This document shows, piece after piece, positions 22,901 through 38,145 of a stretch of DNA of 64,000 bases. The stretch comes from a virus (lineage: Duplodnaviria; Caudoviricetes): IMG/VR virus record IMGVR_UViG_3300022594_000001; one strand, 5' to 3'. The position numbers were made by a program, and so were the translations under genes. The notes below the pieces were generated by a model. That model was not told the DNA's origin. It did no database searches and saw only the letters and a program-made list of their open reading frames with translations. Positions within the stretch are counted from its first letter, which is position 1. Every line of letters starts with the position of its first letter.

Positions 22901-23578
22901 TTACAATCCCCTACTATCCGGTGGTCCAGTTCTGCGTACAGCATGAATGCCCTTTGACAAGGGTTTATTATTGTGACGTTTAGTTAATGCAGGGTTAGAA
23001 CTAGTCTTAAGTCTAGCAGCCAAGTGTTGATCTTTTAATTCTTCATAGTTAGGTTGTTTTCTTAAGTGCCGCCAAACAGCAGTCTTCTTTACTAAAGATC
23101 CGATCTTATCTACTATCTCAGGCAATTGATACCCATTAGTATACAAGTTAACAATCTTAGCGCCTATTTCTGGAGTAACTTTGAAATTAACAAGACCATC
23201 AGGTTCTGCTCGTCGTAAAGACATTACTCTATAAAATTCCTCATCCCCTATCAACTTTCTAATTAGATAATGCACAGTAGCAGCTTGGTTGTAGCCATAT
23301 TCTTTTTCTATTTGTGATAGCGAAGCGCCTGATAAAAACAATTTAACAATACGATCACGATCTTCATCAGTTAAGGCACGTGTTGTCGACACTATTTTGC
23401 CTTTACGATCAGGATAGTATTTTCTAAGAATATGATCAACACTATTTACTGTCATACCTAGTGCAGCAGCAATTTCACGTTGCTGCTTTCCTTGATCCCA
23501 CAGGCCCTTAATCCGATCAACTGTAGCTGGGTCAGTCGTAACAGTTGGGCCTTCAGATATAATTTCGAAAATCTTCAT
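22901..23578 (-). CDS. triple helix-turn-helix protein
   Basis: MKIFEIISE then three repeats of I..L(W/F/Y)..G....EI....G. Confidence 0.7.
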   Translation of the reverse strand: MKIFEIISEGPTVTTDPATVDRIKGLWDQGKQQREIAAALGMTVNSVDHILRKYYPDRKGKIVSTTRALTDEDRDRIVKLFLSGASLSQIEKEYGYNQAATVHYLIRKLIGDEEFYRVMSLRRAEPDGLVNFKVTPEIGAKIVNLYTNGYQLPEIVDKIGSLVKKTAVWRHLRKQPNYEELKDQHLAARLKTSSNPALTKRHNNKPLSKGIHAVRRTGPPDSRGL

Positions 23579-23589
23579 ACGTGTATTTA

Positions 23590-23660
23590 TAACGCGAAGC
23601 GTTAAGCGGTTTTTTAAGCTCGCGAAGCGCAGCGTAAAAGCCTACTGCTACGAAGTAGCA
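23590..23660 (+). other. cluster of three GAA-triloop mini-hairpins
   Basis: TAACGC-GAA-GCGTTA, CGC-GAA-GCG, TGCTAC-GAA-GTAGCA. Confidence 0.7.
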
Positions 23661-23696
23661 CAGCGGTAAAACGCGATACGAGCGTAACTGCTAGCA

Positions 23697-23912
23697 TTAC
23701 CTCTCACTGTCCTTCAACCTATCGCATATACCCTTAATCAACCTGTGCCGTTCACTGACGTCTACCCTTGATGCACTTATACGCTCAATATCATCTAGCG
23801 CAGTTTCAAGCAGTTCGATTCTGTTGAGCGCAGTATAGTAACGCTCACGCAATGTGCTAGCTTGTAGAACGCTGATGAGTTTGGCTAGTAGGATGGGAAT
23901 AAGGTTATGCAC
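23697..23912 (-). CDS. hypothetical protein
   Basis: GTG start 7 nt after TTGCAA-17-TATACT. Confidence 0.55.
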   Translation of the reverse strand: MHNLIPILLAKLISVLQASTLRERYYTALNRIELLETALDDIERISASRVDVSERHRLIKGICDRLKDSER

Positions 23913-24099
23913 TGTTTTAGTATACAGTCAGAAATGGGTATTTGCAACCTAAAATTTTCTAGCGCAAAAAAAATTAGTGGAGTACTTAGGATTTCGGTGG
24001 GGTCAGTTTTGGATCGGGAACGAATGGTTTTTGGCTTGTGGGATAGGCTAGTTTAAATGGTAAACTAGTGCGCCAATTGGGATTTGGGTATAGCATAGA

Positions 24100-24288
24100 T
24101 TAGGCTAAAAATTCTATATAAAACGCTAGAGCTGCGAGTATAGTGATTGTATAGATCCAACCGTAAGTTTGCCAATGAGTCAGCTCAGAACTAGAGTAGA
24201 CACGGTAGAAACAGTCGTAGTCTGGGTCGTAGCGATACTGCTTACCTTTGTGTACTATGTAGTGTAGATATTCGTCATTGTAGTCCAT
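24100..24288 (-). CDS. small membrane protein
   Basis: C-terminal hydrophobic helix. Confidence 0.6.
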   Translation of the reverse strand: MDYNDEYLHYIVHKGKQYRYDPDYDCFYRVYSSSELTHWQTYGWIYTITILAALAFYIEFLA

Positions 24289-24529
24289 ACTAGTATATAG
24301 TAGAGAATAGTTCTGGTGGGAGACAATTATGACGGGGTTTTAACGGGCCCAGAATTGGTCCCTTGCTCCGCAAAATCTAGTCGCGCAAAAAATATAAAAG
24401 AAGTACTTACAGATTCATGATGGTGATTTTGCGTCTATACCCACTGAAATTTGCACGCCAAAATTAACAATTAAGTATTAATTAAAAACGTATAGCCGGC
24501 CACCACTTTTAAAAAAAATCTTTTTATAT

Positions 24530-24576
24530 AGCCCCGACCGTTGAAATCTTTGAAACCTTTCAGTCGCTCCGGGGCT
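24530..24576. repeat. AGCCCC-N35-GGGGCT cassette
   Basis: TAGCCCCG..CGGGGCTA arms. Confidence 0.85.
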
Positions 24577-24654
24577 AGGTCCACAAGCTCGACACACAGC
24601 CCCACAAGAGCAGCGGTTGCTGCTGGCGATAAGGTATGGCTCTGCACAGCCGTT

Positions 24655-24690
24655 AAAAAGCCCTACAAGCTATTAACTGCGTGTAGGGCT
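24655..24690 (-). terminator. terminator downstream of the 24713-25078 gene
   Basis: AGCCCTACA..TGTAGGGCT then T5 on minus strand. Confidence 0.7.
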
Positions 24691-24712
24691 AGTAGGCTAT
24701 GCTAGTGCTAGC

Positions 24713-25078
24713 TTAGTGTAAGCGTAGCTTGCTTAGGAGTGCGTCCGTTGCCCGTTTAGCTTGTGCATCAGCGCCCTGTGCGCTTACAATGTGTTGCGTA
24801 ATGTCTAGCTCTGCACTGCCTGCTAAGTCTGCTACATGCTTTAACAGTGTGTCCATTACTGCACTTGCGCCAGCGTTCAGCTTTAACTGTGCTTCTAGCA
24901 TATTAGCCATGTGCATTTGTATGTGTTGCTCGTAGTCGTGTGCATAGTTTGTAGCAATCCACTCTGCTACTTCTACTTCGTCTTCTAGCTCTTTAACAAA
25001 AATAGCCAGCGTAATCATCTTGTTGTGCTCGTGTGCTTGCCCAATAAACGCTTTTTTAAGTTCCGCAGTTGTAGTCAT
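24713..25078 (-). CDS. early hypothetical protein (TC/CC-free coding strand)
   Basis: GGAGCG RBS, TGnTATACT promoter, terminator. Confidence 0.85.
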   Translation of the reverse strand: MTTTAELKKAFIGQAHEHNKMITLAIFVKELEDEVEVAEWIATNYAHDYEQHIQMHMANMLEAQLKLNAGASAVMDTLLKHVADLAGSAELDITQHIVSAQGADAQAKRATDALLSKLRLH

Positions 25079-25222
25079 CTTGCGCTCCTAGTAGTTGCAC
25101 TGCCCGTTGCAGTATTACAAGTATAACACCTTTTGTTAGTTGTGCAAAAGTCGTTTGTTGTATTTGTGCAACATGTGTTAGCCATACGCTAGTTGTTCAC
25201 GTTATACCTCGGGGCAGCAGTT

Positions 25223-25353
25223 AGCCCCAATGGGCAAAAGTAAACAGCAGCGTTGCGCAGCATTGGGGCTAAACCCCAATGAGCGCAGCTAACACATTGT
25301 CATTGGGGCTCAGCGTTAGCCCCTGGGTGCATTCTGCAGTAGTCTCTGTGGCT
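25223..25353. repeat. three tandem AGCCCC/GGGGCT cassettes
   Basis: Spacers 36, 27, 24 nt; TTAGCCCCAATG/CATTGGGGCTAA 12-bp arms. Confidence 0.8.
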
Positions 25354-25371
25354 TATACGTCGTGCAGAGTC

Positions 25372-25400
25372 AAAAAAAACCCGGAGTATTAGTCCGGGCT
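25372..25400 (-). terminator. terminator
   Basis: CCCGGA..TCCGGG then T8 on minus strand. Confidence 0.7.
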
Positions 25401-25438
25401 GTAAAAGTTGCCTTAGCGCAACTAGGAGGGTAAACTTG

Positions 25439-25615
25439 TTATGCTTCGCCTTCTATGCGTAGCATTATTAATCCTGCAAACATCAAGCAACAGCCGCCTA
25501 GGCTAACGAAGAAACTACCAAACACTTGCCAGTTGTTTAGTGCTGTCTCTACCCCGCCTACGCCACCAAATGCAATCAATAAACCTAGTAACAATACTGC
25601 TCCGCCTTTAGTCAT
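25439..25615 (-). CDS. small membrane protein (58 aa)
   Basis: AAGGAG RBS; two hydrophobic segments; below ORF-track cutoff. Confidence 0.7.
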   Translation of the reverse strand: MTKGGAVLLLGLLIAFGGVGGVETALNNWQVFGSFFVSLGGCCLMFAGLIMLRIEGEA

Positions 25616-25616
25616 A

Positions 25617-25778
25617 TCAAACTCCTTGTGGTGTTGTTAAAATAATTGTACGCTTAAACACACGCTCGTCAATGTCTATTAGCCTACTACGTCTAATAGC
25701 CTGCTTGCGACTAGGCGCCCAAATTTCTACGCAAACTGTACGACTAGCAAGTGCAATGGCAATAGTGTATTTGTTCAT
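25617..25778 (-). CDS. small basic protein (53 aa), leaderless
   Basis: TTGCAC-16-TATACT then 6 nt to ATG. Confidence 0.55.
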   Translation of the reverse strand: MNKYTIAIALASRTVCVEIWAPSRKQAIRRSRLIDIDERVFKRTIILTTPQGV

Positions 25779-25884
25779 GTAGCTAGTATACAGTCATTTT
25801 GAGCGTGTGCAACAATTATTTTTGTCTGTTGTAAAGTCACACGCCGCTGCGGTAGTTGCAGATTGGGCAGCTGGGGCTATGCTA

Positions 25885-25931
25885 CGCCCCACGGAGGCGA
25901 TTTCGCATTCAAGATTTCACCAGGTGGGGCT
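25885..25931. repeat. CGCCCC-N35-GGGGCT cassette
   Basis: GCCCCAC..GTGGGGC arms; extra GGGGCT at 25873. Confidence 0.75.
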
Positions 25932-25940
25932 AGCTTAGTT

Positions 25941-25969
25941 AAAAAAATAGCGTAGCCGTGCTACGCTAT
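25941..25969 (-). terminator. terminator
   Basis: ATAGCGTAGC-ACG-GCTACGCTAT then T tract on minus strand. Confidence 0.8.
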
Positions 25970-25982
25970 GCAATTGCTGCTG

Positions 25983-26591
25983 TTAAACAGTAAGGCTTTG
26001 CTTTTGTGCGTTAAGCTGTACAATGCTGTCTAGCGCAATTGTGCGCACTTGCACTGTATGCAGTACGTCGTGCGTTTTGTTATGCACTACATTTGTCCCC
26101 GCTAGTAAGTCCTTTGCTGCGCTAGCTGTTAGCAAGGCTGCTACTTGTTGCTTAGTTGCTAGCGTGTTGTCAATAAACAACAAGCTATTAGCTGTGTTGT
26201 AAATTGCAAACAAATAAAACTTAGTTGCGTCTGTTTTGTGTTGCACTAAACTAAAAGTACTAGTGTGTGCAAAGTAATTGTCTTGCTGCTCAAACCCCGC
26301 AACGTTTTGTGCAGCATTATCTGCAATTTGTGCGGCTGTGCGCTTAACTGCTGCTGCGTAAACGTTTTTAAAATCGTTAACGTTGTTAAAAAGCTGTATG
26401 CTAGCTTGTGTAACTTTTTGCACGTTAACTGCTTTGTGCGCTGCTGCTGTTTTTACTTGCGTAACTTGCAGTACGCTTGCTAGTGTTATGCCGCGCACGT
26501 TTTGCAGTAGTTGCGCTACTTGCTGTGCGGTAATTGTGTTGTTGTTTGCACGTTGTTGCAATGCTTGCTGTGCTGTTGCTAGTGTTAACAT
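25983..26591 (-). CDS. early hypothetical protein (TC-free coding strand)
   Basis: GGAGCG RBS, GGTGTTATAGT -10, terminator; 202 aa with no P/W/C. Confidence 0.85.
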   Translation of the reverse strand: MLTLATAQQALQQRANNNTITAQQVAQLLQNVRGITLASVLQVTQVKTAAAHKAVNVQKVTQASIQLFNNVNDFKNVYAAAVKRTAAQIADNAAQNVAGFEQQDNYFAHTSTFSLVQHKTDATKFYLFAIYNTANSLLFIDNTLATKQQVAALLTASAAKDLLAGTNVVHNKTHDVLHTVQVRTIALDSIVQLNAQKQSLTV

Positions 26592-26743
26592 TTTGCGCTC
26601 CTAGTTGTTGCTGTGCTTTATTGCACGTAGTAACTATAACACCATTTTTGCGTTTGTGCGCATTTTTTTTAAATTATTTTTGTTGTATTTGCGCAACACG
26701 CATAGCCGTGCAGCAATAAAGTTGATGAATTTATTAAGGTTCC

Positions 26744-26901
26744 GGGGCTGTGCATAGCCCCACAGGGGACCTCTAAGATATCAGATCGATCGCTGCGGGG
26801 CTAACCACACGTTAGAAACCTAGGCGAAGAAAATCAATTTGCGGGGCTAGCTACGCCCCAGTCTCAGCAGCGGCTGCGTAGCAGAAATTCAGAGTGGGGC
26901 G
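26744..26901. repeat. cassette cluster in divergent promoter region
   Basis: Units 26756/26797 (35 nt) and 26854/26896 (36 nt); extra GGGGCT at 26744 and 26843. Confidence 0.8.
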
Positions 26902-26942
26902 GATCCCCGGAGGCAATGTTGAAGTAACCTCCGCGGCAGTTG

Positions 26943-26970
26943 TTGACAGGTGTGCTTTTGGTGTTATACT
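26943..26970 (+). promoter_or_regulatory. early promoter
   Basis: TTGACA-16-TATACT with TTTTGGTGT extended -10, a motif shared with promoters at about 25120, 26635, 32340, 33375, 33790, 47215. Confidence 0.8.
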
Positions 26971-27000
26971 ATGAGTGTTATTAACTAACTAGGAGCGTGT

Positions 27001-27264
27001 ATGTACTGGGTTAAAACAGAAGTAAGCAGTTTTGAAGACGGACGCAAGTTGCTAGCCACATGCGAAACACTTGATGCTGCGATACAAGAGTGTGCGGAGT
27101 GGGCAGAATATGACGATGTGCGTGTTTGGGTAGAAGATCAACATGGCGGAATCGTTCACGAGTTTGAAGGTTACGCAGATGCGGTGGAGTTCTTGTATCC
27201 TGAAGAAGACGACGGACAACCTACAGAGTTAGAAGAATGGATGGACTTTGATCCAGATTGTTAA
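27001..27264 (+). CDS. small acidic early protein
   Basis: 26/87 D+E; C-terminal DDGQPTELEEWMDFDPDC; GGAGCG RBS. Confidence 0.85.
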   Translation: MYWVKTEVSSFEDGRKLLATCETLDAAIQECAEWAEYDDVRVWVEDQHGGIVHEFEGYADAVEFLYPEEDDGQPTELEEWMDFDPDC

Positions 27265-27283
27265 TACAATCTAACTAATCTAC

Positions 27284-27307
27284 AAGCAGGATTCGTCCTG
27301 CTTTTTT
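27284..27307 (+). terminator. terminator
   Basis: AAGCAGGA-TTCG-TCCTGCTT then T tract. Confidence 0.85.
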
Positions 27308-27639
27308 ATTTGTCACAAAGAGCCCCAAGTAGTTCTCTGCTGTAGTTCGCAGCAGTTTGGGGCTCTAGTCTTTTATTCTCCTAAAAGTCTCCGGATTCTC
27401 CAAAGCCCCACGGGAGCGCACATGATGAATTCATCTTTGTCGTTCGGGGCTATAGACGTAAGTTGTTGATTTATATAGACCGGTATTCTTAGCCCCGGAT
27501 CTGAATTCAGATGAATTCATCATCGCATCGGTGGGGCTAGGCGGTTTCCTGCAATCTATAATCTACTAAACAGCGGGGCCAGCCCCACCTACAGTGTGCG
27601 ACGCATACTTAGATTCTTGAGGCTCTGTGCAAAAAGATG

Positions 27640-27667
27640 TTGACAAGATCTAATTTTCTTTTACAAT
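27640..27667 (+). promoter_or_regulatory. orphan sigma70-type promoter
   Basis: TTGACA-16-TACAAT, no ORF downstream. Confidence 0.55.
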
Positions 27668-27780
27668 ACACATATGCAGTAGCGAAGCTCTGACTATAAT
27701 TTCTTTAGCCCCACTTACTACACATGCTGCTGCCCATGGGGCTCTGCGTAATACTAGTGAAAGCCATGACTAAAGTTTTC

Positions 27781-27845
27781 TTGACAGCAGCTTTTTTGCG
27801 TGTAAAGTTAGCAATACAGCAGCAATGCATAGATCTTTAAAAATT
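27781..27845 (+). promoter_or_regulatory. orphan promoter followed by boxA-like element
   Basis: TTGACA-16-TAAAGT then GATCTTTAAAAATT. Confidence 0.45.
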
Positions 27846-28061
27846 CATACAGAGGTAATTTTTGATGCTCAATCGGCTCGAGTGGGGCTTTAGACTAGCC
27901 TCGTTTGCAGCCACGTGGTCACATGCAGCAGGGTGGGGCTGTAGCCGTACGCAGGATATCGTTGAATAAATTCAACCTGCCCGGGGCTGTTAGTAAGTGC
28001 TTACTAACTTAGTAGCCGTGCGTTTTGGTTTATGGTTTCGATCATTCAGAGACGGGGTTGA

Positions 28062-28136
28062 TGGTCCGCCCTCCAGGAATCGAACCTGGATCCACAGCTT
28101 AGAAGGCTGCTGCACTGTCCATTGTGCTAAGGGCAG
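28062..28136 (-). tRNA. tRNA-Arg (UCU)
   Basis: Full cloverleaf, CT-TCT-AA loop, TTCGATT, encoded CCA. Confidence 0.95.
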
Positions 28137-28137
28137 A

Positions 28138-28212
28138 TGGTGGGCCAACTAGGAATTGAACCTAGACTCAATCGATTATGAGTCGACTGCTTTACCATTA
28201 AGCTATTGGCCC
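28138..28212 (-). tRNA. tRNA with CAU anticodon, probably Ile2 (lysidine type)
   Basis: Cloverleaf, GACTCATAATC arm as in ileX-type tRNAs, G1-C72 pair, encoded CCA. Confidence 0.9.
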
Positions 28213-28218
28213 AGGTTC

Positions 28219-28470
28219 TTATAGCTCGTAGGGCATTAACCCATCGTCTATCAAGTCTTCAATACGGTCTTCACGTTCTACATACTCAGCTTCTAAGTCG
28301 TCTGGCTTCATGTTGTTGTACTGTATGAAACCATTACCCTGTATGATATCAGCAAGGAAGTCGTAACTCCCCTCGTCGATATTCGTGAGTATTGTTCGGA
28401 TATCTTGCGCAGTCAAGCGTTCAATTACCTGCTCGCGTGTTAAGTCCTTGTAGAACTTAGTCGTTGCCAT
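28219..28470 (-). CDS. acidic hypothetical protein
   Basis: 83-aa ORF upstream of tRNAs. Confidence 0.75.
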   Translation of the reverse strand: MATTKFYKDLTREQVIERLTAQDIRTILTNIDEGSYDFLADIIQGNGFIQYNNMKPDDLEAEYVEREDRIEDLIDDGLMPYEL

Positions 28471-28648
28471 TTGTCGTGCTTTCGGATTCGTTTAATAGAT
28501 CTGCAATGCGTACTGCAATCTGTTCTGCTTCGTGCTCATTGTCACGTGCAATAATACACAGGACTCGCCCAGGAGGAGTACTCTTAAAGTCGCGAACTAC
28601 AACTCTGTTAGGTGTGTAGTCCTCGCTGAGCGAATATCCGTACCGCAT
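28457..28648 (-). CDS. hypothetical protein
   Basis: 63-aa ORF, coupled overlaps. Confidence 0.6.
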   Translation of the reverse strand: MRYGYSLSEDYTPNRVVVRDFKSTPPGRVLCIIARDNEHEAEQIAVRIADLLNESESTTNGND

Positions 28649-28956
28649 TAGGCTGCTGCTGTTGCCTTAGAGGCCACCACAGCGGGGCCTTTAGCCTTGC
28701 TAGCCTTAGGTGCCTTCTCTTCGAGATACTCTGCAATTGCTGCCTGTGCTGCTGCATCCTGATACTCGTCCATAGTCTGGATTGCCTTGACTGCTTCGTA
28801 CTTGGGCATTGGTGTGTCAAGCTCACACAAGCGAACGTCTTCGTGACCGTGCTTGTCTAGTACTTTAATTCGCATGATGTCTGTTGCGAATCGGACTTTA
28901 TACTCACCGTCGAGTTTACTTACGCCTACTACATTGAATAGTTTATCTGTTGCCAT
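28648..28956 (-). CDS. hypothetical protein with Ala/Lys-rich tail
   Basis: AGGAAGG RBS; TTGACG-17-TATAAT at 29045-29017. Confidence 0.8.
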   Translation of the reverse strand: MATDKLFNVVGVSKLDGEYKVRFATDIMRIKVLDKHGHEDVRLCELDTPMPKYEAVKAIQTMDEYQDAAAQAAIAEYLEEKAPKASKAKGPAVVASKATAAA

Positions 28957-28980
28957 AATATGCCTTCCTAATAAATTAAT

Positions 28981-29271
28981 TTAAATTGCCTTCGTCCGTT
29001 TTTTTGGACTTGCCTTATTATACAATCGTTTGGCAGCAACGTCAACCTTTTTAGGTATCTTTTGGCTGAACTCGCGATCGATATAATACTCTACGAGCAT
29101 ATTCTTAATCATAATAGTTAAGTCATAGCCCACATCATCTGGGCAGATAAAGCGTACAGGACACTTACCCCACCCTTGATATTCTAGGAACTCAGCGTAC
29201 CATTTGCGGTGATCTTTGTTACGTGGATCGAATGCAACTAAAGGTCGAGCGAAGTATTCTAGTTTGCTCAT
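28981..29271 (-). CDS. hypothetical protein
   Basis: 96-aa ORF, WGKCPVRF. Confidence 0.75.
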   Translation of the reverse strand: MSKLEYFARPLVAFDPRNKDHRKWYAEFLEYQGWGKCPVRFICPDDVGYDLTIMIKNMLVEYYIDREFSQKIPKKVDVAAKRLYNKASPKKRTKAI

Positions 29272-29486
29272 AAGTATTTTTGTAAAACCTCGTTAGCTAA
29301 GTTAGTATCTTGAATCGTATCGAGCATGGCCCACACCATTAAATTCATAACCGTACGGGCTTCTCGTTGTTGATCCTCCGGCAGAGTTGCAATGAAGCTC
29401 ATTACATCATCTGTTGTGTCTAGGCCCCACATAACATCTGCTAGGGCCCGTTGGCGTTTCGTTAGACCATCAATCAAAATATCCAT
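29268..29486 (-). CDS. hypothetical protein
   Basis: MDILIDGLTKRQ, coupled to neighbours. Confidence 0.7.
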   Translation of the reverse strand: MDILIDGLTKRQRALADVMWGLDTTDDVMSFIATLPEDQQREARTVMNLMVWAMLDTIQDTNLANEVLQKYL

Positions 29487-29631
29487 CGTCACGCCCCTTA
29501 TGTTTAGGTCGACGTTGATACGTACCTTTCTTTGGCTCTTCCTTCTTTGGCCAGAACGGAGAGTCATCTTGGAAAAGTACACGATGAGCGCGAGTCTTTT
29601 TGCGCTGTGGAACTTGTTTCAAATGCATCAT
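29470..29631 (-). CDS. ArfA-like ribosome-rescue factor candidate (53 aa)
   Basis: SPFWPKKEEPKKGTYQRRPKHKG resembles the ArfA core; TTGACT-17-TATAAT upstream. Confidence 0.45.
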   Translation of the reverse strand: MMHLKQVPQRKKTRAHRVLFQDDSPFWPKKEEPKKGTYQRRPKHKGRDDGYFD

Positions 29632-29672
29632 GTTAGTATATATCCAACGTCGTTCAAAATTGTATTATACAC

Positions 29673-29825
29673 TCAAAGCAAGCGATAGTCAAGTGGGCTA
29701 TTGTGATAGGCAGCTTGTAGTTCAAACTGATCTACACCGTATGCTTGAACAGTGTCTATGACTGCTTGTACGTAATCGCATCCCAACAACATAAGTTGTT
29801 TCATGTGTGCTACTGCTTGGTTCAT
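29673..29825 (-). CDS. small hypothetical protein
   Basis: GGAGCGCGAA RBS, TTGACC-16-TATAAT. Confidence 0.7.
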   Translation of the reverse strand: MNQAVAHMKQLMLLGCDYVQAVIDTVQAYGVDQFELQAAYHNSPLDYRLL

Positions 29826-29897
29826 TTCGCGCTCCTTTTTGTTAAACAATGTGTATATTATACAGCCAAAATCCAAAAGGTCAACCAAAATATTTCT

Positions 29898-29933
29898 AGC
29901 CCCACAGGCTTATTCAAGGCAATCTGTGGGGCT
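29898..29933. repeat. AGCCCC-N24-GGGGCT cassette
   Basis: TAGCCCCACAG/CTGTGGGGCTA 11-bp arms. Confidence 0.85.
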
Positions 29934-29942
29934 ACTCTAGCC

Positions 29943-30035
29943 AAAAAAAAGCCCTAGCATACCGGGAGCGAATCGGGTTTATAGCTAGGGCTTACCACTA
30001 CTAAGGGCTTACCGGGAGCGAATCGTTGGGCCCTT
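29943..30035 (-). ncRNA. tandem-hairpin 3'-UTR RNA/terminator with anti-RBS loops
   Basis: Two stems each enclosing CGAUUCGCUCCCGGUA; second ends in U8. Confidence 0.6.
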
Positions 30036-30054
30036 TACCACACATGTTGCGATC

Positions 30055-30957
30055 TTAGTGTCGCATACACGTTACCTGGGCAGTAGCTTGCCAGTTGCTA
30101 GGCAAACTCTTGCGCAAATCTGCTACCTTAAGAACCATACGCAAAGACAACTCTCGCATCTTGTTCTTATTTAGATCGATAAAGTCTACGATCTCTTGCT
30201 TCTGAGCATCATCAAACTCGTATACATCAAGCATGCCGTCGCCTACAATTTGCTTGATACGCAGCATTTTTTCACGGGTTGTATCTATAGTCAAGTCCAG
30301 GTAGTGACAACGCGACTCTAGGGCTTCTAAGTGATCACGCAGCTTACGCGATTTAACGTGATCGAACTTGATGTTTGTGATAAAGATTGCCCCACCCGCA
30401 AACTCGAACGAGTTGGGTACGGCTTCGTCTTTGAGCGCACGTGAGTCCGTGTTCCAACAAATGACTCGTTTCTTGCTGCTGTCTAAGGCTGCTTTAAGAA
30501 TGTTCAGCGACAAGTCGTCAAGCAGGACGCTATCGCAGTCATCGAAGACAAGGATGCATTTACGATCCTTATACTCATAGAGTTTTTTGTACAGACCCAA
30601 GGCACTCATAGCCCCTTTGACAATCTCGTACTTCTTGAGCTTTGAGTCATTGGCTACGTCTGCGAATACGTCGTGTTTCGATAACACTGTTTCAACACCA
30701 TAGCTCTTGCCAACCCCGGGCGGGCCTGAGACAATCATAGCCCGAACGTGTCCGGCTTTACATGCTCGAGTCATGTCGTCTAAGATGCTAAACCTCGCTC
30801 GTAGACGCTCGATAATCTCGGCATCAGTCTCATGGCTAAGGTCCTTGTCAACTGCTTCGAGTTCAAGACTTCTTACTTCTACTTTAGAAGGCTTGGTGGC
30901 ATTTGCCTGCGTTTCTAAAGCGTTAACCATTTCTAATGTCCATACCTTTCCAACCAT
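30055..30957 (-). CDS. AAA+ family ATPase
   Basis: GPPGVGKS, LVFDDCD, FITN, ALESRC. Confidence 0.85.
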   Translation of the reverse strand: MVGKVWTLEMVNALETQANATKPSKVEVRSLELEAVDKDLSHETDAEIIERLRARFSILDDMTRACKAGHVRAMIVSGPPGVGKSYGVETVLSKHDVFADVANDSKLKKYEIVKGAMSALGLYKKLYEYKDRKCILVFDDCDSVLLDDLSLNILKAALDSSKKRVICWNTDSRALKDEAVPNSFEFAGGAIFITNIKFDHVKSRKLRDHLEALESRCHYLDLTIDTTREKMLRIKQIVGDGMLDVYEFDDAQKQEIVDFIDLNKNKMRELSLRMVLKVADLRKSLPSNWQATAQVTCMRH

Positions 30958-31021
30958 AGTCGCTCCTATAATTATTAATGTAATCCGCTATTATAACAAG
31001 GGCCGAAGCCCTTGTCAAGTT

Positions 31022-31453
31022 TTACCACGAGCTGTGATACTCAAAATCCCAACCCTGTGGAAACTCTTCTAGGATTCGGGCAATGGCTTCTTCGGTTTCA
31101 CGCAAGTCTGCCCAATACCATTCGTCCACTTGATCCGAACCAAAGAAGAAGCCTGATGTTGGAGGCAGCTTACTAGCATCTTTGGTGTCAAGCACTTCTA
31201 GGATCAGCTGTCGCAGGATCTCTAGTTGATCACGCCCGACATAGTAGTTGCCGCAGTCGTCTGTACCGCCCTGCACGTTATCCACAAACCATTTATGGAT
31301 TTGGTTGCTCTTTCGCCAATACATTGCCTCAGCAATAATCTCTTTGACTCGCTTGCCTTCGAGTTCGGGCAAAGCTTCTGCTACCTTTTCGCCAATTTCG
31401 TTTTCGTTGTGCCAAAGAAAACGTTTGGCATTCAAATACATATCAAGTCCCAT
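31022..31453 (-). CDS. early hypothetical protein
   Basis: MGLDMYL, YWRKSNQIHKWF, GFFFGS; GGAGCGAA RBS. Confidence 0.85.
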   Translation of the reverse strand: MGLDMYLNAKRFLWHNENEIGEKVAEALPELEGKRVKEIIAEAMYWRKSNQIHKWFVDNVQGGTDDCGNYYVGRDQLEILRQLILEVLDTKDASKLPPTSGFFFGSDQVDEWYWADLRETEEAIARILEEFPQGWDFEYHSSW

Positions 31454-31518
31454 GTTTCGCTCCTAGGTTAAAGTTGAATTCGTGTGGGCTCTCTCGTTGG
31501 CCCACCCACGTTACTTCA

Positions 31519-31914
31519 TCAGCCTTCCACGCACTGATAATCTTTGTCCCACGCACCAATGCTCAAGTGTGTGTAGAATGCGGTGTCAAAGTAGTCTGTC
31601 ATCGCATCGCTGCGATCGTAATACTTACGACTAGGATTAGCACGACCGGGCGCATTGTGCATGATCTCATTGATCTTTTCAAGCACCATTTGCTCTTCTT
31701 TGTCTGTCCAGTGATCTTTGATCCAGTAAGTGTTAACCTGCACATGACGACGCCCGCCTGTCATGTTCTCGTCAAAGCTGCAGGTACCTTTCAGAATCGT
31801 TACGTCTACGCTAAGGCTACCTGAGCCTTTACGAACGCTAAACTTCCATTTTGGAAAATTAGCTTTGAGTTCTGCACGGATTGCTGACACGTCGTCTGCT
31901 GTAATATATGCCAT
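31519..31914 (-). CDS. LPD29-like domain protein
   Basis: IRAELKANFPKWKFSVR..DAMTDYFD; GGAGCGAA RBS. Confidence 0.6.
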   Translation of the reverse strand: MAYITADDVSAIRAELKANFPKWKFSVRKGSGSLSVDVTILKGTCSFDENMTGGRRHVQVNTYWIKDHWTDKEEQMVLEKINEIMHNAPGRANPSRKYYDRSDAMTDYFDTAFYTHLSIGAWDKDYQCVEG

Positions 31915-31949
31915 TTGGTTCGCTCCAATTGCTGTTGTTGAAGTGTTAA

Positions 31950-32294
31950 TTATACAGTCAGTTCGCCGAATTTAGCTTCCCAACTGGAAATAAATTTAGC
32001 GCCTACATCCAACGAGACGTAGTCGTCGCCTTGCATGCCTTGCTCGCTGTATTCAACGTCAAGTGCAAGGTTATGCTCAATCAAAAAGTGAGTCAAGTCA
32101 CGCAAGAACTGCTTGTCTGTGTAGATCAAACCTGAGTCCTCTGTGTTCCATGTATCTGTGTTAAAGTATACACGCAGTTCGCCAAAGTCTTTCTCCTCAT
32201 TGCAGTAGCCGATCTTCATGTTAGTGATCTCTACAGCTTTGATGTCGCCTGACCAGTAGCCAGTTCCGCTTGTGTTGAAAATTACCTTTTGCAT
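31950..32294 (-). CDS. early hypothetical protein
   Basis: GELRVYFNTDTW, GLIYTD, YSEQGMQG; GGAGCGAA RBS. Confidence 0.85.
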   Translation of the reverse strand: MQKVIFNTSGTGYWSGDIKAVEITNMKIGYCNEEKDFGELRVYFNTDTWNTEDSGLIYTDKQFLRDLTHFLIEHNLALDVEYSEQGMQGDDYVSLDVGAKFISSWEAKFGELTV

Positions 32295-32400
32295 GTTTCG
32301 CTCCATGTGTGTTGCTGCACTATCGCAGTATCATAACTATAACACCAAAAAAGCCAAAATCAAAATTATTTTATCAGTAGTTTCACTAATGTTGTATTTG

Positions 32401-32436
32401 AGCCCCACACTATCGATCAAAACCAAACGTGGGGCT
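32401..32436. repeat. AGCCCC-N24-GGGGCT cassette
   Basis: AGCCCCAC/GTGGGGCT. Confidence 0.85.
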
Positions 32437-32447
32437 AACAAGTCCAC

Positions 32448-32472
32448 AAAAAAAGGGCCCTAAAGCCCTTTC
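32448..32472 (-). terminator. terminator
   Basis: AAAGGGC..GCCCTTT then T tract on minus strand. Confidence 0.75.
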
Positions 32473-32479
32473 AGAATGA

Positions 32480-32608
32480 TCAGTTATCTAGTTCGTACTT
32501 GACCCAGTCTGTCATTTCGTGTACTAACAGATCTGCGTCTGAATCGTACAAGTCATCAAGCTCTTCTAACAGATCTAACTCTTCGTCTTCTGTCATGATG
32601 TTTACCAT
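32480..32608 (-). CDS. very acidic 42-aa protein
   Basis: MVNIMTEDEELDLLEELDDLYDSDAD..; AAGGAG RBS; 16/42 D+E. Confidence 0.7.
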   Translation of the reverse strand: MVNIMTEDEELDLLEELDDLYDSDADLLVHEMTDWVKYELDN

Positions 32609-32640
32609 TTTTTGCTCCTTTGTGGTTAATGGTAGTCAAA

Positions 32641-33339
32641 TTATACAGTCTCTTTGATACGAATAACGAAGCCACTGTAATCTTTTTTGGCACGATGCCC
32701 TTTTACTTTAAGGCCCATCATGCCCACTTTTGGGTCTAAGAAGCGCAAGTCTGTCTCGTCCGCGCTATACATGCCCTTAGGAATCTCATCGTAGACAGCG
32801 GCTACATTCATGCCCGCCTTAAGCGCCTTCTTGACATCTGCATCGTTTGACTCAGCACGGCTGAATGTCAAGTGATAGTTCTTAGGCAAGTTCTTGCGTC
32901 CCAGAACCTTAGTGTAGTCATAGAACTGTACTTCAGGAAAGAGCTCAAACAAGTTAAGTCCAGTCTCGCCCACTTCATACTTTTCCCACGAAAGATCGCT
33001 AGTGCCATTCAAACGGAACACGGGCACCAAGTTCTTCTTCTCGGAGTAATTAATAGCCTTTTGAATGTCCTCTGCTAGCTTGAACATGAACGCAGGACGA
33101 TCTGCAAAGAACTCACGTGTCTTGCGAATACGTGCCTGCTGGATGGTGTTAGTACCGCCATCTTTGAACATACCACCGCGTCCCGCAAGGTTAAGGCATG
33201 CTGCGATACAACCTGCTGTGGCTTTAGGGCATACATTCTTGCCCGACAAGTCGTATGGTGCAAGATGTAGAATCCAAGTTAGATAGCCCTTCTTTTGGCC
33301 CTTGATAGTCTTAGGGTTTCCCTTTGTTAAGTAATGCAT
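32641..33339 (-). CDS. GP88-like protein
   Basis: CPKATAGCIAAC, FRLNGTSDL, FYDYTK; GGAGCGAA RBS. Confidence 0.7.
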   Translation of the reverse strand: MHYLTKGNPKTIKGQKKGYLTWILHLAPYDLSGKNVCPKATAGCIAACLNLAGRGGMFKDGGTNTIQQARIRKTREFFADRPAFMFKLAEDIQKAINYSEKKNLVPVFRLNGTSDLSWEKYEVGETGLNLFELFPEVQFYDYTKVLGRKNLPKNYHLTFSRAESNDADVKKALKAGMNVAAVYDEIPKGMYSADETDLRFLDPKVGMMGLKVKGHRAKKDYSGFVIRIKETV

Positions 33340-33404
33340 AGTTTCGCTCCTATGTGTGTTAAGTTAGAACTAGTATAGCACCAAAAAGATGCTGGTCAAC
33401 CAAT

Positions 33405-33758
33405 TTATATAAAAATTTTACGATTAGTCAAATAAGCCTGCTCTGCTGTGAAGATAGGCTGCTCACCATCTGCATAGACAAAGGTAGAATACTTGTAGGG
33501 ATTGTAAGTTACCGCGATATCGCTAGTGTCACGAATCACTGTATCTACTGCCCCGAACCATTGCCCAACAACACCTGCATGGACATTCTTCTTCTGCTCA
33601 CGTAGAACACGAGCACGACCCGCCTGACTTACACGAAACTGAACATTGTGCAGAGTCACTTCGCTAGCATGTTCAATGACTAGCCCTTTATGTGATCCTT
33701 CAAGCGCCTTGATTGAAAAGACCCGTTTGTGCAAATTATAGTAGACAAATACTCGCAT
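33405..33758 (-). CDS. early hypothetical protein
   Basis: VYYNLHKRVFSI, KKNVHAGVVG, YNPYK; GGAGCGAA RBS. Confidence 0.85.
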   Translation of the reverse strand: MRVFVYYNLHKRVFSIKALEGSHKGLVIEHASEVTLHNVQFRVSQAGRARVLREQKKNVHAGVVGQWFGAVDTVIRDTSDIAVTYNPYKYSTFVYADGEQPIFTAEQAYLTNRKIFI

Positions 33759-33854
33759 GGTTCGCTCCTAGTTAGTATGTCATAAGTATAGCACCAAAAT
33801 ACCAAGAGCAAGAGAAATTTTGCCAGTATTTTCCATGAGTTGCCAAAAAACAAC

Positions 33855-34033
33855 AGTCCCACATGAATCTAGTGCTGCCAATCAATATCATCATGTGGGG
33901 CTAAAGTCAGCCCCAGACTACAGTCAGCAGCAGAGTTTAGATTCCTGGGGCTAAGAACCCCACACTAGACTAGTGATCGATTAATCTGCCCGGGGCGGGG
34001 CTAAAAGAATGGAAACGAGTTTGGTTCAGCCCC
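33855..34033. repeat. three tandem cassettes plus trailing AGCCCC
   Basis: Spacers 36, 32, 35 nt. Confidence 0.85.
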
Positions 34034-34051
34034 ACGAAAATAGATCCAGAG

Positions 34052-34100
34052 TTATCCACAGGTTATCCACAGTTGTAATCTAGCCACAGAGTTATCCACA
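34052..34100 (+). promoter_or_regulatory. three perfect DnaA boxes
   Basis: TTATCCACA at 34052, 34063, 34092. Confidence 0.8.
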
Positions 34101-34166
34101 GTGGCGAAAAAGCCACGTTGTATTCTCGCAACAGTGGCGAAAAAACAACAGTGGCAAAAATACAAC
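34072..34166. repeat. five GTKG-N8-CMAC palindromic units
   Basis: At 34072, 34101, 34117, 34134, 34151. Confidence 0.8.
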
Positions 34167-34196
34167 ACTTCTAGATCTAAATAAGAATTATTCTTA

Positions 34197-34415
34197 TCAA
34201 GGATAATGTTTCGGTTTGGATTTTGGTAATGGATTTGACAACCAGTCTTCAGCTTGACTATGATCATCAAAGCACTCATATTCACATATACCAGAATCTT
34301 CACAGTACTTGAACAAGTGCAAGCGATGAGTCAGAGTGTTAAGACTGACTGCGATATTGCAATCATGATCCTTAACGTGTACATGAGCAATAGTAATGAT
34401 TTCATTGTGCGCCAT
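34197..34415 (-). CDS. hypothetical protein, leaderless late-type
   Basis: TAAATA 4 nt before ATG. Confidence 0.6.
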   Translation of the reverse strand: MAHNEIITIAHVHVKDHDCNIAVSLNTLTHRLHLFKYCEDSGICEYECFDDHSQAEDWLSNPLPKSKPKHYP

Positions 34416-34569
34416 ATTGTATTTACTAGTATATGAAAAATTTACTTTGTTATTCACAGTAGAGTCACAGTGTATATGTGAAAGAATGTTAAAAAGTGTG
34501 ATCTAGATCATGGTGCCACCGTTAGATCAGTCTATACGCAAGAGGCAAAGACTCGAAACGGTACAAAAG

Positions 34570-34588
34570 TGTGGAAAAGTGTGGAAAA
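34570..34588 (-). promoter_or_regulatory. two DnaA-consensus boxes (TTTTCCACA)
   Basis: TGTGGAAAA at 34570 and 34580 fits TTWTNCACA. Confidence 0.5.
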
Positions 34589-34786
34589 GTGCAGAATTGT
34601 GTGAGACAACCTAGAATTTGAATCATTTTCAAGCCTGGTGTGGCTTTTTTACAACAGTTTAGATTTTGGTTGACAATGGTCGTGACAGGCAATGCGACAA
34701 TGAATGGTAAAACCGTCTTTTTCTTATCTATACGCAAGCTAATCTATTCCCCACCGCCTCTTTGTAACGGTTTCCCATAGTGCTCA

Positions 34787-35088
34787 CAGCGGGGCCTACA
34801 CTATATACACGCTAGAATCACATGACTCTACAGCGGGGCCTATGTATATACTACGCTATACACAGTAACCATCACTATAACTGTCCTCTAAGCGCGAGCG
34901 AGTCTTTATATACAAGTTTAGCCATATTTCTTTTATGCTATACACGCTATATGTATAATTACTAGTATATGCACATGTAGTCTTACTAGTGTATATACAT
35001 GAGTTTGTTAATAACTTCTAGTCGCTGCATACGCTAGCATATGGCAGTAAGTTTTACTTGTTATTCGTGTATATACTACAGCGGGGCC
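34787..35088 (+). repeat. CAGCGGGGCC direct repeats around a TA-rich tract
   Basis: Copies at 34787, 34831, 35079 (also 27571). Confidence 0.7.
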
Positions 35089-35116
35089 TGTGCAATATCA
35101 TTTAGGATATTTGTTT

Positions 35117-38074: not shown

Positions 38075-38145
38075 TGTGTCCTACTTTCTGTGTGTTAGTG
38101 AGCCTATTATAAGCTCAAATAATAGTTGAGTCAACCAAAGGGTTT

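Follow-up and report, generated by a model that had tools for sequence, protein, structure and literature searches.

The interval from 23590 to 35100 (11.5 kb) of a 64,000-nt stretch of viral DNA (IMG/VR record IMGVR_UViG_3300022594_000001; the whole stretch is called the window below) carries small genes, two tRNA genes, gene-free arrays of inverted repeats and a mostly non-coding control hub (Table 1). Its coding density is 0.53 by our own gene caller, against 0.93 in the left flank and 0.85 in the right flank, and gene calls on identical public contigs yield 22 genes that together make up about 6.96 kb (60% of the interval), so that the low coding density pointed out in an earlier note on this DNA holds with either set of gene calls. 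That note, made from the letters alone, had read the interval as first-injected or terminal DNA and/or an origin, built as a host-takeover and counter-defence module. The phage is an uncultured freshwater giant (jumbo) phage: a megablast search against 50,697 deposited phage records found no close match to the interval or the window, and no cultured close relative was available for synteny. Its recombinase and helicase genes have about 67% DNA identity to those of the RaK2, CBB, fHe-Yen9-04 and Muenster jumbo-phage group and, judged by sequence, it is a distant relative of the RaK2/PA5oct group; UvsX, helicases, primase and DnaB are encoded in the window's left 14.7 kb. Several pond, lake and virome assemblies contain DNA identical to the window, and relatives in which the ATPase of the interval is 63-95% identical sit on contigs of 0.3-0.375 Mb. 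We compared two close relatives (L007 and L015; ATPase identity 87-89%) and three more distant ones (L013, L010 and G001; 78-63%), using the 353-kb, 98% complete genome of G001 and 20-kb loci of L010 and L013.

About 13 sigma-70-type promoters lie in the interval. One promoter sequence, TTTTGGTGYTATAVT, has four exact copies (26956+, 32336-, 33372- and 33785-), all of them inside the interval, as expected from the shared promoters of the earlier note, and six copies in the window if up to two mismatches are allowed (1.8 expected). Seven promoters of the form GGTGYTATAVT (25128-, 26641-, 26962+, 30998-, 32344-, 33380- and 33793-) are followed 25-30 nt later by TAGGAGCG, a second promoter family, ACTGTATAMT, is found at 23931, 25797, 31961 and 32640, and additional TTGAC-N16-17-TATAAT sites are present; sigma-70-like sites between 23.0 and 39.5 kb number 53, against 31.8 +/- 5.9 expected. 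Genes of the interval have in common an extended Shine-Dalgarno sequence, GGAGCGAA, and GGAGCGM-N3-9-ATG occurs nine times, always within 25.0-33.8 kb, where 0.85 copies are expected. A 16-bp dyad, GTKG-N8-CMAC, is present in 15 copies (3.6 expected), 13 of which lie in 25.1-34.7 kb, and single sites (25157, 26682 and 33839) precede several early promoters by 40-80 bp. Inverted repeats built from AGCCCC and GGGGCT are nearly confined to 24.5-34.0 kb (20 of 22 GGGGCT and 15 of 16 AGCCCC copies), in keeping with the cassette arrays that had been claimed; twelve are perfect, with stems of 7-12 bp and loops of 16-36 nt, there are imperfect ones besides, and gene-free arrays of them lie at 25.2-25.3, 26.7-26.9, 27.3-28.0 and 33.86-34.04 kb. 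Read along the minus strand, the unit runs from an intrinsic terminator through one or more AGCCCC...GGGGCT repeats, the GTKG-N8-CMAC dyad, a strong promoter (in many cases of the extended -10 type) and the common Shine-Dalgarno sequence to a small open reading frame (ORF), and the succession of terminator, repeat, operator and promoter is found again and again, at 25.1-25.4, 26.6-26.9, 29.86-29.99, 32.33-32.48 and 33.78-34.04 kb.

Table 1. Genes and control elements of the interval, in window coordinates (aa, amino acids; HTH, helix-turn-helix; UTR, untranslated region).
Feature	Position	Strand	Remarks
Left boundary: three short GAA/TTC-triloop hairpins	23590-23689		Flanked by the last early-type gene and by the ATAAATA-type (late-like) promoter of the HTH gene; from reading the sequence
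Two small ORFs (62 aa and 58 aa)	24100-24288; 24471-24647	-	Promoter abuts the ATG of the 62-aa ORF; gene calls of identical public contigs
121-aa gene	24713-25078	-	Own promoter (-10 at 25128-25120); Shine-Dalgarno sequence TAGGAGCG; transcript nearly free of UC and CC
AGCCCC/GGGGCT array	25221-25330		Between terminator 25400-25378(-) and operator 25157-25172 with its promoter
58-aa hydrophobic ORF	25439-25615	-	
53-aa basic ORF	25617-25778	-	TGTATACT six bases ahead of the ATG, leaderless type
202-aa gene	25983-26591	-	Own promoter (-10 at 26641-26633)
Divergent control region	26744-26970		Inverted repeats; plus-strand promoter TTGACA-16-TATACT (26943-26970)
87-aa acidic protein	27001-27264	+	Followed by terminator 27284-27303
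Gene-free array of about eight AGCCCC/GGGGCT units	27319-28000		Promoter-like sites inside (27640-27667 and 27781-27808)
tRNA-Arg(UCU) and tRNA-Met(CAU)	28062-28212	-	ARAGORN; Rfam 63 and 76 bits
Six-gene operon (83, 63, 102, 96, 72 and 53 aa)	28219-29631	-	Promoter TTGACT-17-TATAAT (29692-29664)
Full cassette with 50-aa gene	29673-29934	-	Inverted repeat 29897-29934; promoter 29884-29857
Two 3' UTR hairpins, apical CCG[AUUCGCUCC]CGG	29943-30035	-	Second hairpin is a U8 terminator
AAA ATPase, T4 NrdC.10 type (phrog_1250)	30055-30957	-	12/12 consensus promoter 31018-30990
Four genes: 143 aa (phrog_7971), LPD29 (131 aa), acidic 114 aa, acidic 42 aa	31022-32608	-	Promoters 31961-31946, 32344-32336 and 32640-32625; inverted repeat 32401-32436
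GP88-family gene (232 aa) and L5-gp82-family gene (117 aa)	32641-33758	-	Each behind an identical TTTTGGTGCTATACT promoter
Control hub	33839-34655		Inverted repeats 33860-34035; seven dyad sites; six DnaA boxes; 72-aa gene 34197-34415(-)
Three ACAGCGGGGCC boxes with TATATAC repeats	34786-35092	+	AT-rich stretch 34903-35022 (73% A+T)

Against the two close relatives, conserved and replaced blocks alternate, with their borders at promoters. The blocks conserved in both are 34736-33779, 33408-32449, 32346-32000, 30976-29926, 29647-28097 (the block of the six-gene operon) and 26707-25887, and a portion of the gene-free array (27446-27587) is conserved as well. Between them the gp82 cassette (33408-33779) is replaced between two identical promoters, and the LPD29/143-aa and 50-aa cassettes are likewise exchanged for other genes in relatives. 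Single repeat units move too: one strain variant is without exactly one unit (26806-26854), and one unit occupies different loci in the window and in L015. In both relatives the dyad array and the Shine-Dalgarno sequence persist, the repeat hexamers are present in 33-37 copies, and two or three perfect DnaA boxes occupy the syntenic position. The more distant L013, L010 and G001 are without the AGCCCC repeats and the DnaA cluster, but still carry dense TTGACA promoters, GGAGCGA, a ACAGCGGGGCC-type box and the hairpins described below, so that across 63-89% ATPase identity a promoter-dense array of small genes is kept at the same place, adjoining the replication genes; this is the outcome of the synteny comparison that the earlier note had called for. 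Because 26 of the 30 TTGACW-N16-18-TAnnnT sites on the minus strand of G001 cluster at 310-340 kb, beside its replication genes, such a region is unique genome-wide in this relative, and it is also the most G+C-rich part of that genome. In the window, too, no part is richer in G+C than the early region, whose G+C content is 44-47%, against 35-40% in the replication module (window 24000-34000 and G001 310-330 kb). In L001 and L010 the ATPase gene lies just 1-5 kb from the DnaB module, from which it follows that much of 14.7-30 kb is lineage-specific.

In every relative the stop codon of the ATPase gene is followed by two or three hairpins with the same apical sequence, the last of which is the terminator. 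The 9-nt loop, AUUCGCUCC, is closed by CCG/CGG and is complementary to the early Shine-Dalgarno sequence. Our 14-mer scan of IMG/VR returned many single matches that are likely due to chance, and we used only those in tandem or linked to an ATPase gene; across IMG/VR there are 100 instances with an outer helix of at least 5 bp, among which there are 88 different 5' stem arms, the loop being invariant while the stems covary, and the ATPase gene lies just upstream in 27 of the 80 loci fetched. Rfam holds no family for these hairpins. For 11 cassettes the duplex predicted between the loop and the Shine-Dalgarno sequence has an energy of -11 to -14.6 kcal/mol; the corresponding mean of 94 genes outside is -5.7. 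The anti-ribosome-binding-site RNA of the earlier note is therefore a real element, conserved in a broad clade of phages, and by base complementarity it would pair with the early Shine-Dalgarno sequence and damp early translation. Staphylococcus aureus RNAIII and the Rsa RNAs pair with Shine-Dalgarno sequences through C-rich hairpin loops, and the phage RNA resembles them in that a pyrimidine-rich loop is repeated at the tip of several hairpins and is the complement of ribosome-binding sites in a set of genes. It differs from them in that its hairpins are the 3' UTR and terminator of the ATPase gene, its 9-nt loop matches a phage-specific extended Shine-Dalgarno sequence, and its pairing is predicted.

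We consider it likely that the interval is the core of the early-gene region, read by unmodified host sigma-70 RNA polymerase and organized as a hyperplastic array of autonomous cassettes. The early timing and the use of the host polymerase we infer because the promoters are consensus sigma-70 while neighbours outside carry T4-late-like ATAAATA boxes (near the start codons of the HTH gene, 22901-23578(-), and of several genes further left). PA5oct relies on host RNA polymerase (PMC7318152), and a T7-type RNA polymerase was not found in G001, although a control search likewise returned nothing and the result is hence weak evidence. The contigs of one RNA library cover 24784-25685, 26125-26640, 28177-28959, 29864-30681 and 32526-33227, which indicates presence only; their depth between 19 and 39 kb is very uneven (low at 23.0-23.7, 27.0-27.7 and 33.7-37.0 kb, high at 28.2-29.0 kb) and cannot rank genes, and no conclusion can be drawn from the parts left uncovered. 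Several observations weigh against the early-region reading. These RNA-library contigs cover flanking genes too and may include DNA; the 72-aa gene within the hub has a late-like TAGTAAATA box; no interval protein matched a family of known function in PHROGs, Pfam or NCBIfam; pairing with the hairpin loop at -10 kcal/mol or better is also predicted for 12 of the 94 outside genes; and strong sigma-70 promoters occur outside the interval (38134-, 39139-, 39143+, 47209+ and 52426+), which means that 'early' is not exclusive to it. The right limit at 35100 is for the same reason arbitrary, since further promoters (consensus ones at 38134, 39139 and 39143) and small orphan genes occur as far as about 50 kb, with 27 small genes from 40 to 48 kb. 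The statement that the features of the interval are essentially absent elsewhere in the window thus stands for the specific motifs and fails for strong sigma-70 promoters and dense small orphan genes.

The inverted repeats themselves also count against this reading, in that they have long loops and no U-tract and are preceded by separate intrinsic terminators. T4-type phages have hyperplastic regions in which promoter early stem-loop (PeSL) units mark the borders of the indels and replacements that distinguish relatives (PMC4122927, PMC2839356), and by layout these regions resemble the interval: small variable orphan genes, flanked by a unit of stem-loop and early promoter, beside the replication genes. 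Here too a composite of stem-loop and early sigma-70 promoter recurs between small variable genes, at five sites or more, and the replacements relative to L007 and L015, the two relatives compared, are bounded by the motif. Because of their long loops and missing U-tract, however, the AGCCCC/GGGGCT repeats are at odds with a classical PeSL in its terminator half, and they would not terminate the preceding gene. Unlike the PeSL, the repeat of the interval is conserved in sequence, lies apart from the terminator and also forms gene-free arrays, and its unit includes a dyad operator and the common extended Shine-Dalgarno sequence.

Two genes of the interval are further distinguished by the composition of their transcripts. 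The GA- and GG-free genes of the earlier note correspond to a plus-strand run of 811 nt free of GA (25914-26723) and one of 475 nt free of GG (24737-25210), both longer than the longest runs for the remaining 14 dinucleotides (103-447 nt). On the minus strand these are mRNAs poor in UC and CC (together YC), at 24650-25113 and 25947-26626: YC dinucleotides number 1.1 per 100 nt in the 121-aa gene and 0.6 in the 202-aa gene, against 7.4-8.9 elsewhere (window mean 8.9), although the C content of the two transcripts is still 23-24%. Orthologues of the two genes retain the bias. The 202-aa ORF has 81-85 third-position differences from its orthologues, against 29-41 at first and second positions, and by this codon pattern it is truly protein-coding. 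Each cleft of the Rho primary binding site takes one YC dinucleotide (PMC5314796), and it is for this reason that we propose that Rho would not load on these two mRNAs. Evasion of a YC-specific nuclease or of a cytidine deaminase could alternatively account for the loss of YC. Avoidance of GA and GG as target motifs of the phage's 7-deazaguanine modification was set aside, since the motif specificity is that of another phage and G in GC and GT contexts is plentiful on the same strand.

At the upstream end of the interval lies a 1.3-kb hub (33.8-35.1 kb) that is about 70% conserved in L007 and L015 though mostly non-coding. Three perfect DnaA boxes, TTATCCACA, stand at 34052, 34063 and 34092, two of them starting 11 bp apart, and belong to a group of six TTWTNCACA boxes in 34052-34588 (537 bp; those three and 34450 on the plus strand, 34570 and 34580 on the minus strand), where chance would give about 0.04; the DnaA boxes of the earlier note are in this sense well founded. 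Five of the seven GTKG-N8-CMAC sites of the hub are in tandem (34072-34166), spaced 16-29 bp and interleaved with the perfect DnaA boxes. The ACAGCGGGGCC box has five plus-strand copies in the window (27570, 28679, 34786, 34830 and 35078) against 0.25 expected, and every relative, as far out as 63% ATPase identity, retains it, without exception on the strand that does not carry the early genes. It often lies beside TATATAC repeats or just upstream of a -35 box, and one copy is inside conserved coding sequence.

One explanation for the hub, which we regard as rather unlikely, is that it is an origin of the iteron and DnaA-box type, at which an initiator would bind the dyads, DnaA would assist and the AT-rich stretch would melt. 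The hub does combine DnaA boxes and the five dyad sites in tandem with an AT-rich stretch (34.9-35.0 kb) that carries TATATAC repeats, the number of boxes is far above chance, the block is conserved in the two closest relatives, and the genes for DnaB and primase are about 20 kb away. The layout recalls the origins of lambda, P1, RK2 and pSC101, and lambda ori, P1 oriR and RK2 oriV likewise have DnaA boxes and tandem repeats that bind a protein, with an AT-rich stretch close by. In contrast to iteron origins, the repeats here also stand singly upstream of early promoters, as fits a transcription factor, there is no adjacent initiator gene, and the cluster is not clade-wide: the 20-kb loci of L010 and L013 and the whole G001 genome are without it (nowhere in G001 are there three or more boxes within 600 bp). 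Cumulative GC skew, which the earlier note had named as a check, shows no inflection at the hub and merely tracks gene strand, and the AT-rich stretch of the hub ranks only tenth in the window. T4-group phages can start replication from promoters and by recombination, without DnaA.

Alternatively, DnaA boxes and dyads may be purely transcriptional, forming a switch that would sense the status of host DnaA and shut the early promoters; this is somewhat less doubtful than an origin, but we would not call it probable. At some promoters of bacteria, DnaA is known to act as a transcription factor. The placement of dyad sites 40-80 bp upstream of several early promoters, and the position of the boxes on either side of a small gene that has a promoter of its own, are consistent with such a switch, but five tandem sites and six boxes exceed the need of a single promoter, and no regulator gene was identified.

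A third explanation takes up the claim that the interval is terminal or first-injected: all or part of it would be a direct terminal repeat or T5-like first-step-transfer DNA, with the hub as an injection-pause site. There are precedents among large phages. In PA5oct the terminal repeat is 39 kb long and contains 105 small genes, of which many are early (PMC7318152), the record of XacN1 contains a GP88 homologue twice, among small genes and tRNAs, and the host-takeover module of SPO1 lies within its terminal redundancy (PMC10531801, PMC6873191). The terminal repeats of PA5oct and XacN1, which are highly expressed early (PMC7318152), resemble the interval in their tRNAs, their tens of small orphan genes and their transcribed stretches devoid of genes; the XacN1 repeat has a GP88-family gene, as does the interval, and this phage group uses host RNA polymerase. 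The SPO1 module is similar in being a cluster of some two dozen small genes whose early promoters and ribosome-binding sites are strong, and differs in its position in the terminal redundancy and in that several of its proteins have demonstrated host targets. Closest in layout to 33.8-35.1 kb is the untranslated injection stop signal (iss) region of T5, which adjoins the pre-early genes and has many repeats and palindromes and about eight DnaA boxes (bioRxiv 10.1101/866236). T5 first-step-transfer DNA likewise has small pre-early genes with strong host-type promoters beside a conserved untranslated stretch of more than 1 kb, and its iss shares with the hub direct repeats, inverted repeats and a cluster of DnaA boxes, some of which form pairs with a spacing of about one helical turn. 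This combination is found in the window, L007 and L015 and is not found in L010, L013 and G001, so that here, as opposed to T5, the DnaA boxes are missing from more distant relatives. T5 also differs in having a mapped 10-kb terminal repeat and an experimentally established two-step entry, the DnaA model for T5 is itself a proposal, and no homologue of T5 A1, A2 or dmp was matched among interval proteins in PHROGs or Pfam.

Positional evidence argues against terminal DNA. In all six long assemblies the region is internal, with contig ends at unrelated distances (it lies at 22-43 kb of a 186-kb contig, 41-62 of 373 kb, 275-296 of 375 kb, 73-94 of 307 kb and 324 of 353 kb), and G001 has no end repeat. 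Contig ends near the right edge of the window (63.6-65 kb) fall at four different points within a 1152-aa gene that two assemblies read through, and are explained by assemblies breaking at differing points in this gene. No ORF of the window matches the PA5oct repeat (tblastn against PA5oct 1-41000), to whose genes the interval thus has no homology, and the ATPase homologue of PA5oct lies outside that repeat. Contig depth over about 24.4-31.5 kb, taken like coverage from the assembled Logan contigs of four runs, is above the flanks in three of them (1.2-2x), as a terminal repeat would predict; depth is, however, one figure per contig with co-occurring strains summed, the step is not exactly twofold, strains sharing the module would explain it equally, and both borders are short elements that recur elsewhere. 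Overall, we judge a terminal position to be very unlikely, and the terminal or first-injected part of the earlier claim is unsupported; its other part, an early control region, is upheld by the consensus sigma-70 promoters, the synteny of relatives and the cassette swaps.

At the two borders of the raised depth (24397-24432 and 31485-31513) the assembly graph breaks in two runs, and 24397-24432 is a 36-nt unitig at about twice the depth of its neighbours; an exact scan of JGI metagenome contigs found no copy of it. The raised depth between these points could reflect a strain-shared module, a short repeat or over-replication. Candidate joints 25282->32477 and 32404->25262 were discarded, their sides being only about 21 nt. 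Within the 1152-aa gene at the right edge (62781 to beyond 64000, plus strand), the breaks of at least four independent assemblies lie at differing places, and this gene is probably hypervariable or repetitive. At the left boundary, the three hairpins have GAA triloops (TTC on the minus strand) and lie directly upstream of the ATAAATA box and the HTH gene; one of them scored terminator-like. The non-coding block 24347-24514 is 79-81% identical in L007 and L015, has a second, 70% identical copy 421 bp away (23929-23988), and may be a small RNA or regulatory element. At four minus-strand starts (23912, 24288, 25778 and 34415) a -10-like box stands 3-6 nt before the start codon with no Shine-Dalgarno sequence, which suggests that these genes have leaderless mRNAs.

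Among the proteins, the acidic mini-proteins that had been noted are indeed acidic: the 87-aa protein (26 D+E) and the 42-aa protein (16 D+E) both have an isoelectric point (pI) of 4.1, and the others range from 4.2 to 4.6. The 87-aa protein matched no family, and the ESM Atlas gave no usable lead for it or for the 202-aa protein. The LPD29-like ORF (31519-31914(-)) matches PF18847 at 49.5 bits (cut-off 27; E 6.9e-13), as had been supposed. The 53-aa ORF described as ArfA-like (29470-29631(-)) gave no hit in Pfam or NCBIfam up to E 1, nor any to an ArfA chain in the PDB sequences up to E 10; its likeness to ArfA is limited to a short basic motif, and we rejected the assignment. A very basic ORF of 46-53 aa is conserved at this position (L007:11858-11998), with a KK-x-Y-QRRPKHKGRDDGY tail and a 17-nt overlap with the next gene. 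Because relatives swap genes here while keeping the control elements, the region is a natural search ground for host-takeover and anti-defence proteins, and host-takeover and counter-defence roles of the interval are putative.

The regulatory grammar of the interval is unusually explicit. Its shared control sequences would permit gene expression at once after entry and would double as homology for cassette exchange among related phages, as PeSLs do in T4-type phages. Further layers may act on top of these: a dimeric DNA-binding protein at the dyad sites, concentrated with the DnaA boxes in the upstream 1.3-kb hub; the 3' UTR RNA of the ATPase gene, whose two or three loops would pair with the early Shine-Dalgarno sequence and damp early translation; and two transcripts stripped of YC, which may block the loading of Rho. 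That these form a single self-timing entry module, in which progressive titration of the Shine-Dalgarno sequence by the co-transcribed RNA and Rho resistance of the two most autonomous transcripts would work together with a hub that either pauses entry, as has been proposed for T5, or couples the early programme to the replication state of the host, is a speculation to which we give little credence; the three mechanisms have not been described together in any phage. Early regions decide the success of phage infection. The interval offers for a large clade a common, readable regulatory grammar, consisting of a promoter family, a dyad operator, an extended Shine-Dalgarno sequence and an RNA with a complementary loop. 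Two ideas that it raises are of wider interest, namely that the translation of a class of genes may be damped by a 3' UTR RNA directed at their Shine-Dalgarno sequence, and that transcripts may be protected from Rho by the loss of YC; and, if the hub were indeed an entry pause or an origin, an idea confined to T5 would be extended to jumbo phages.

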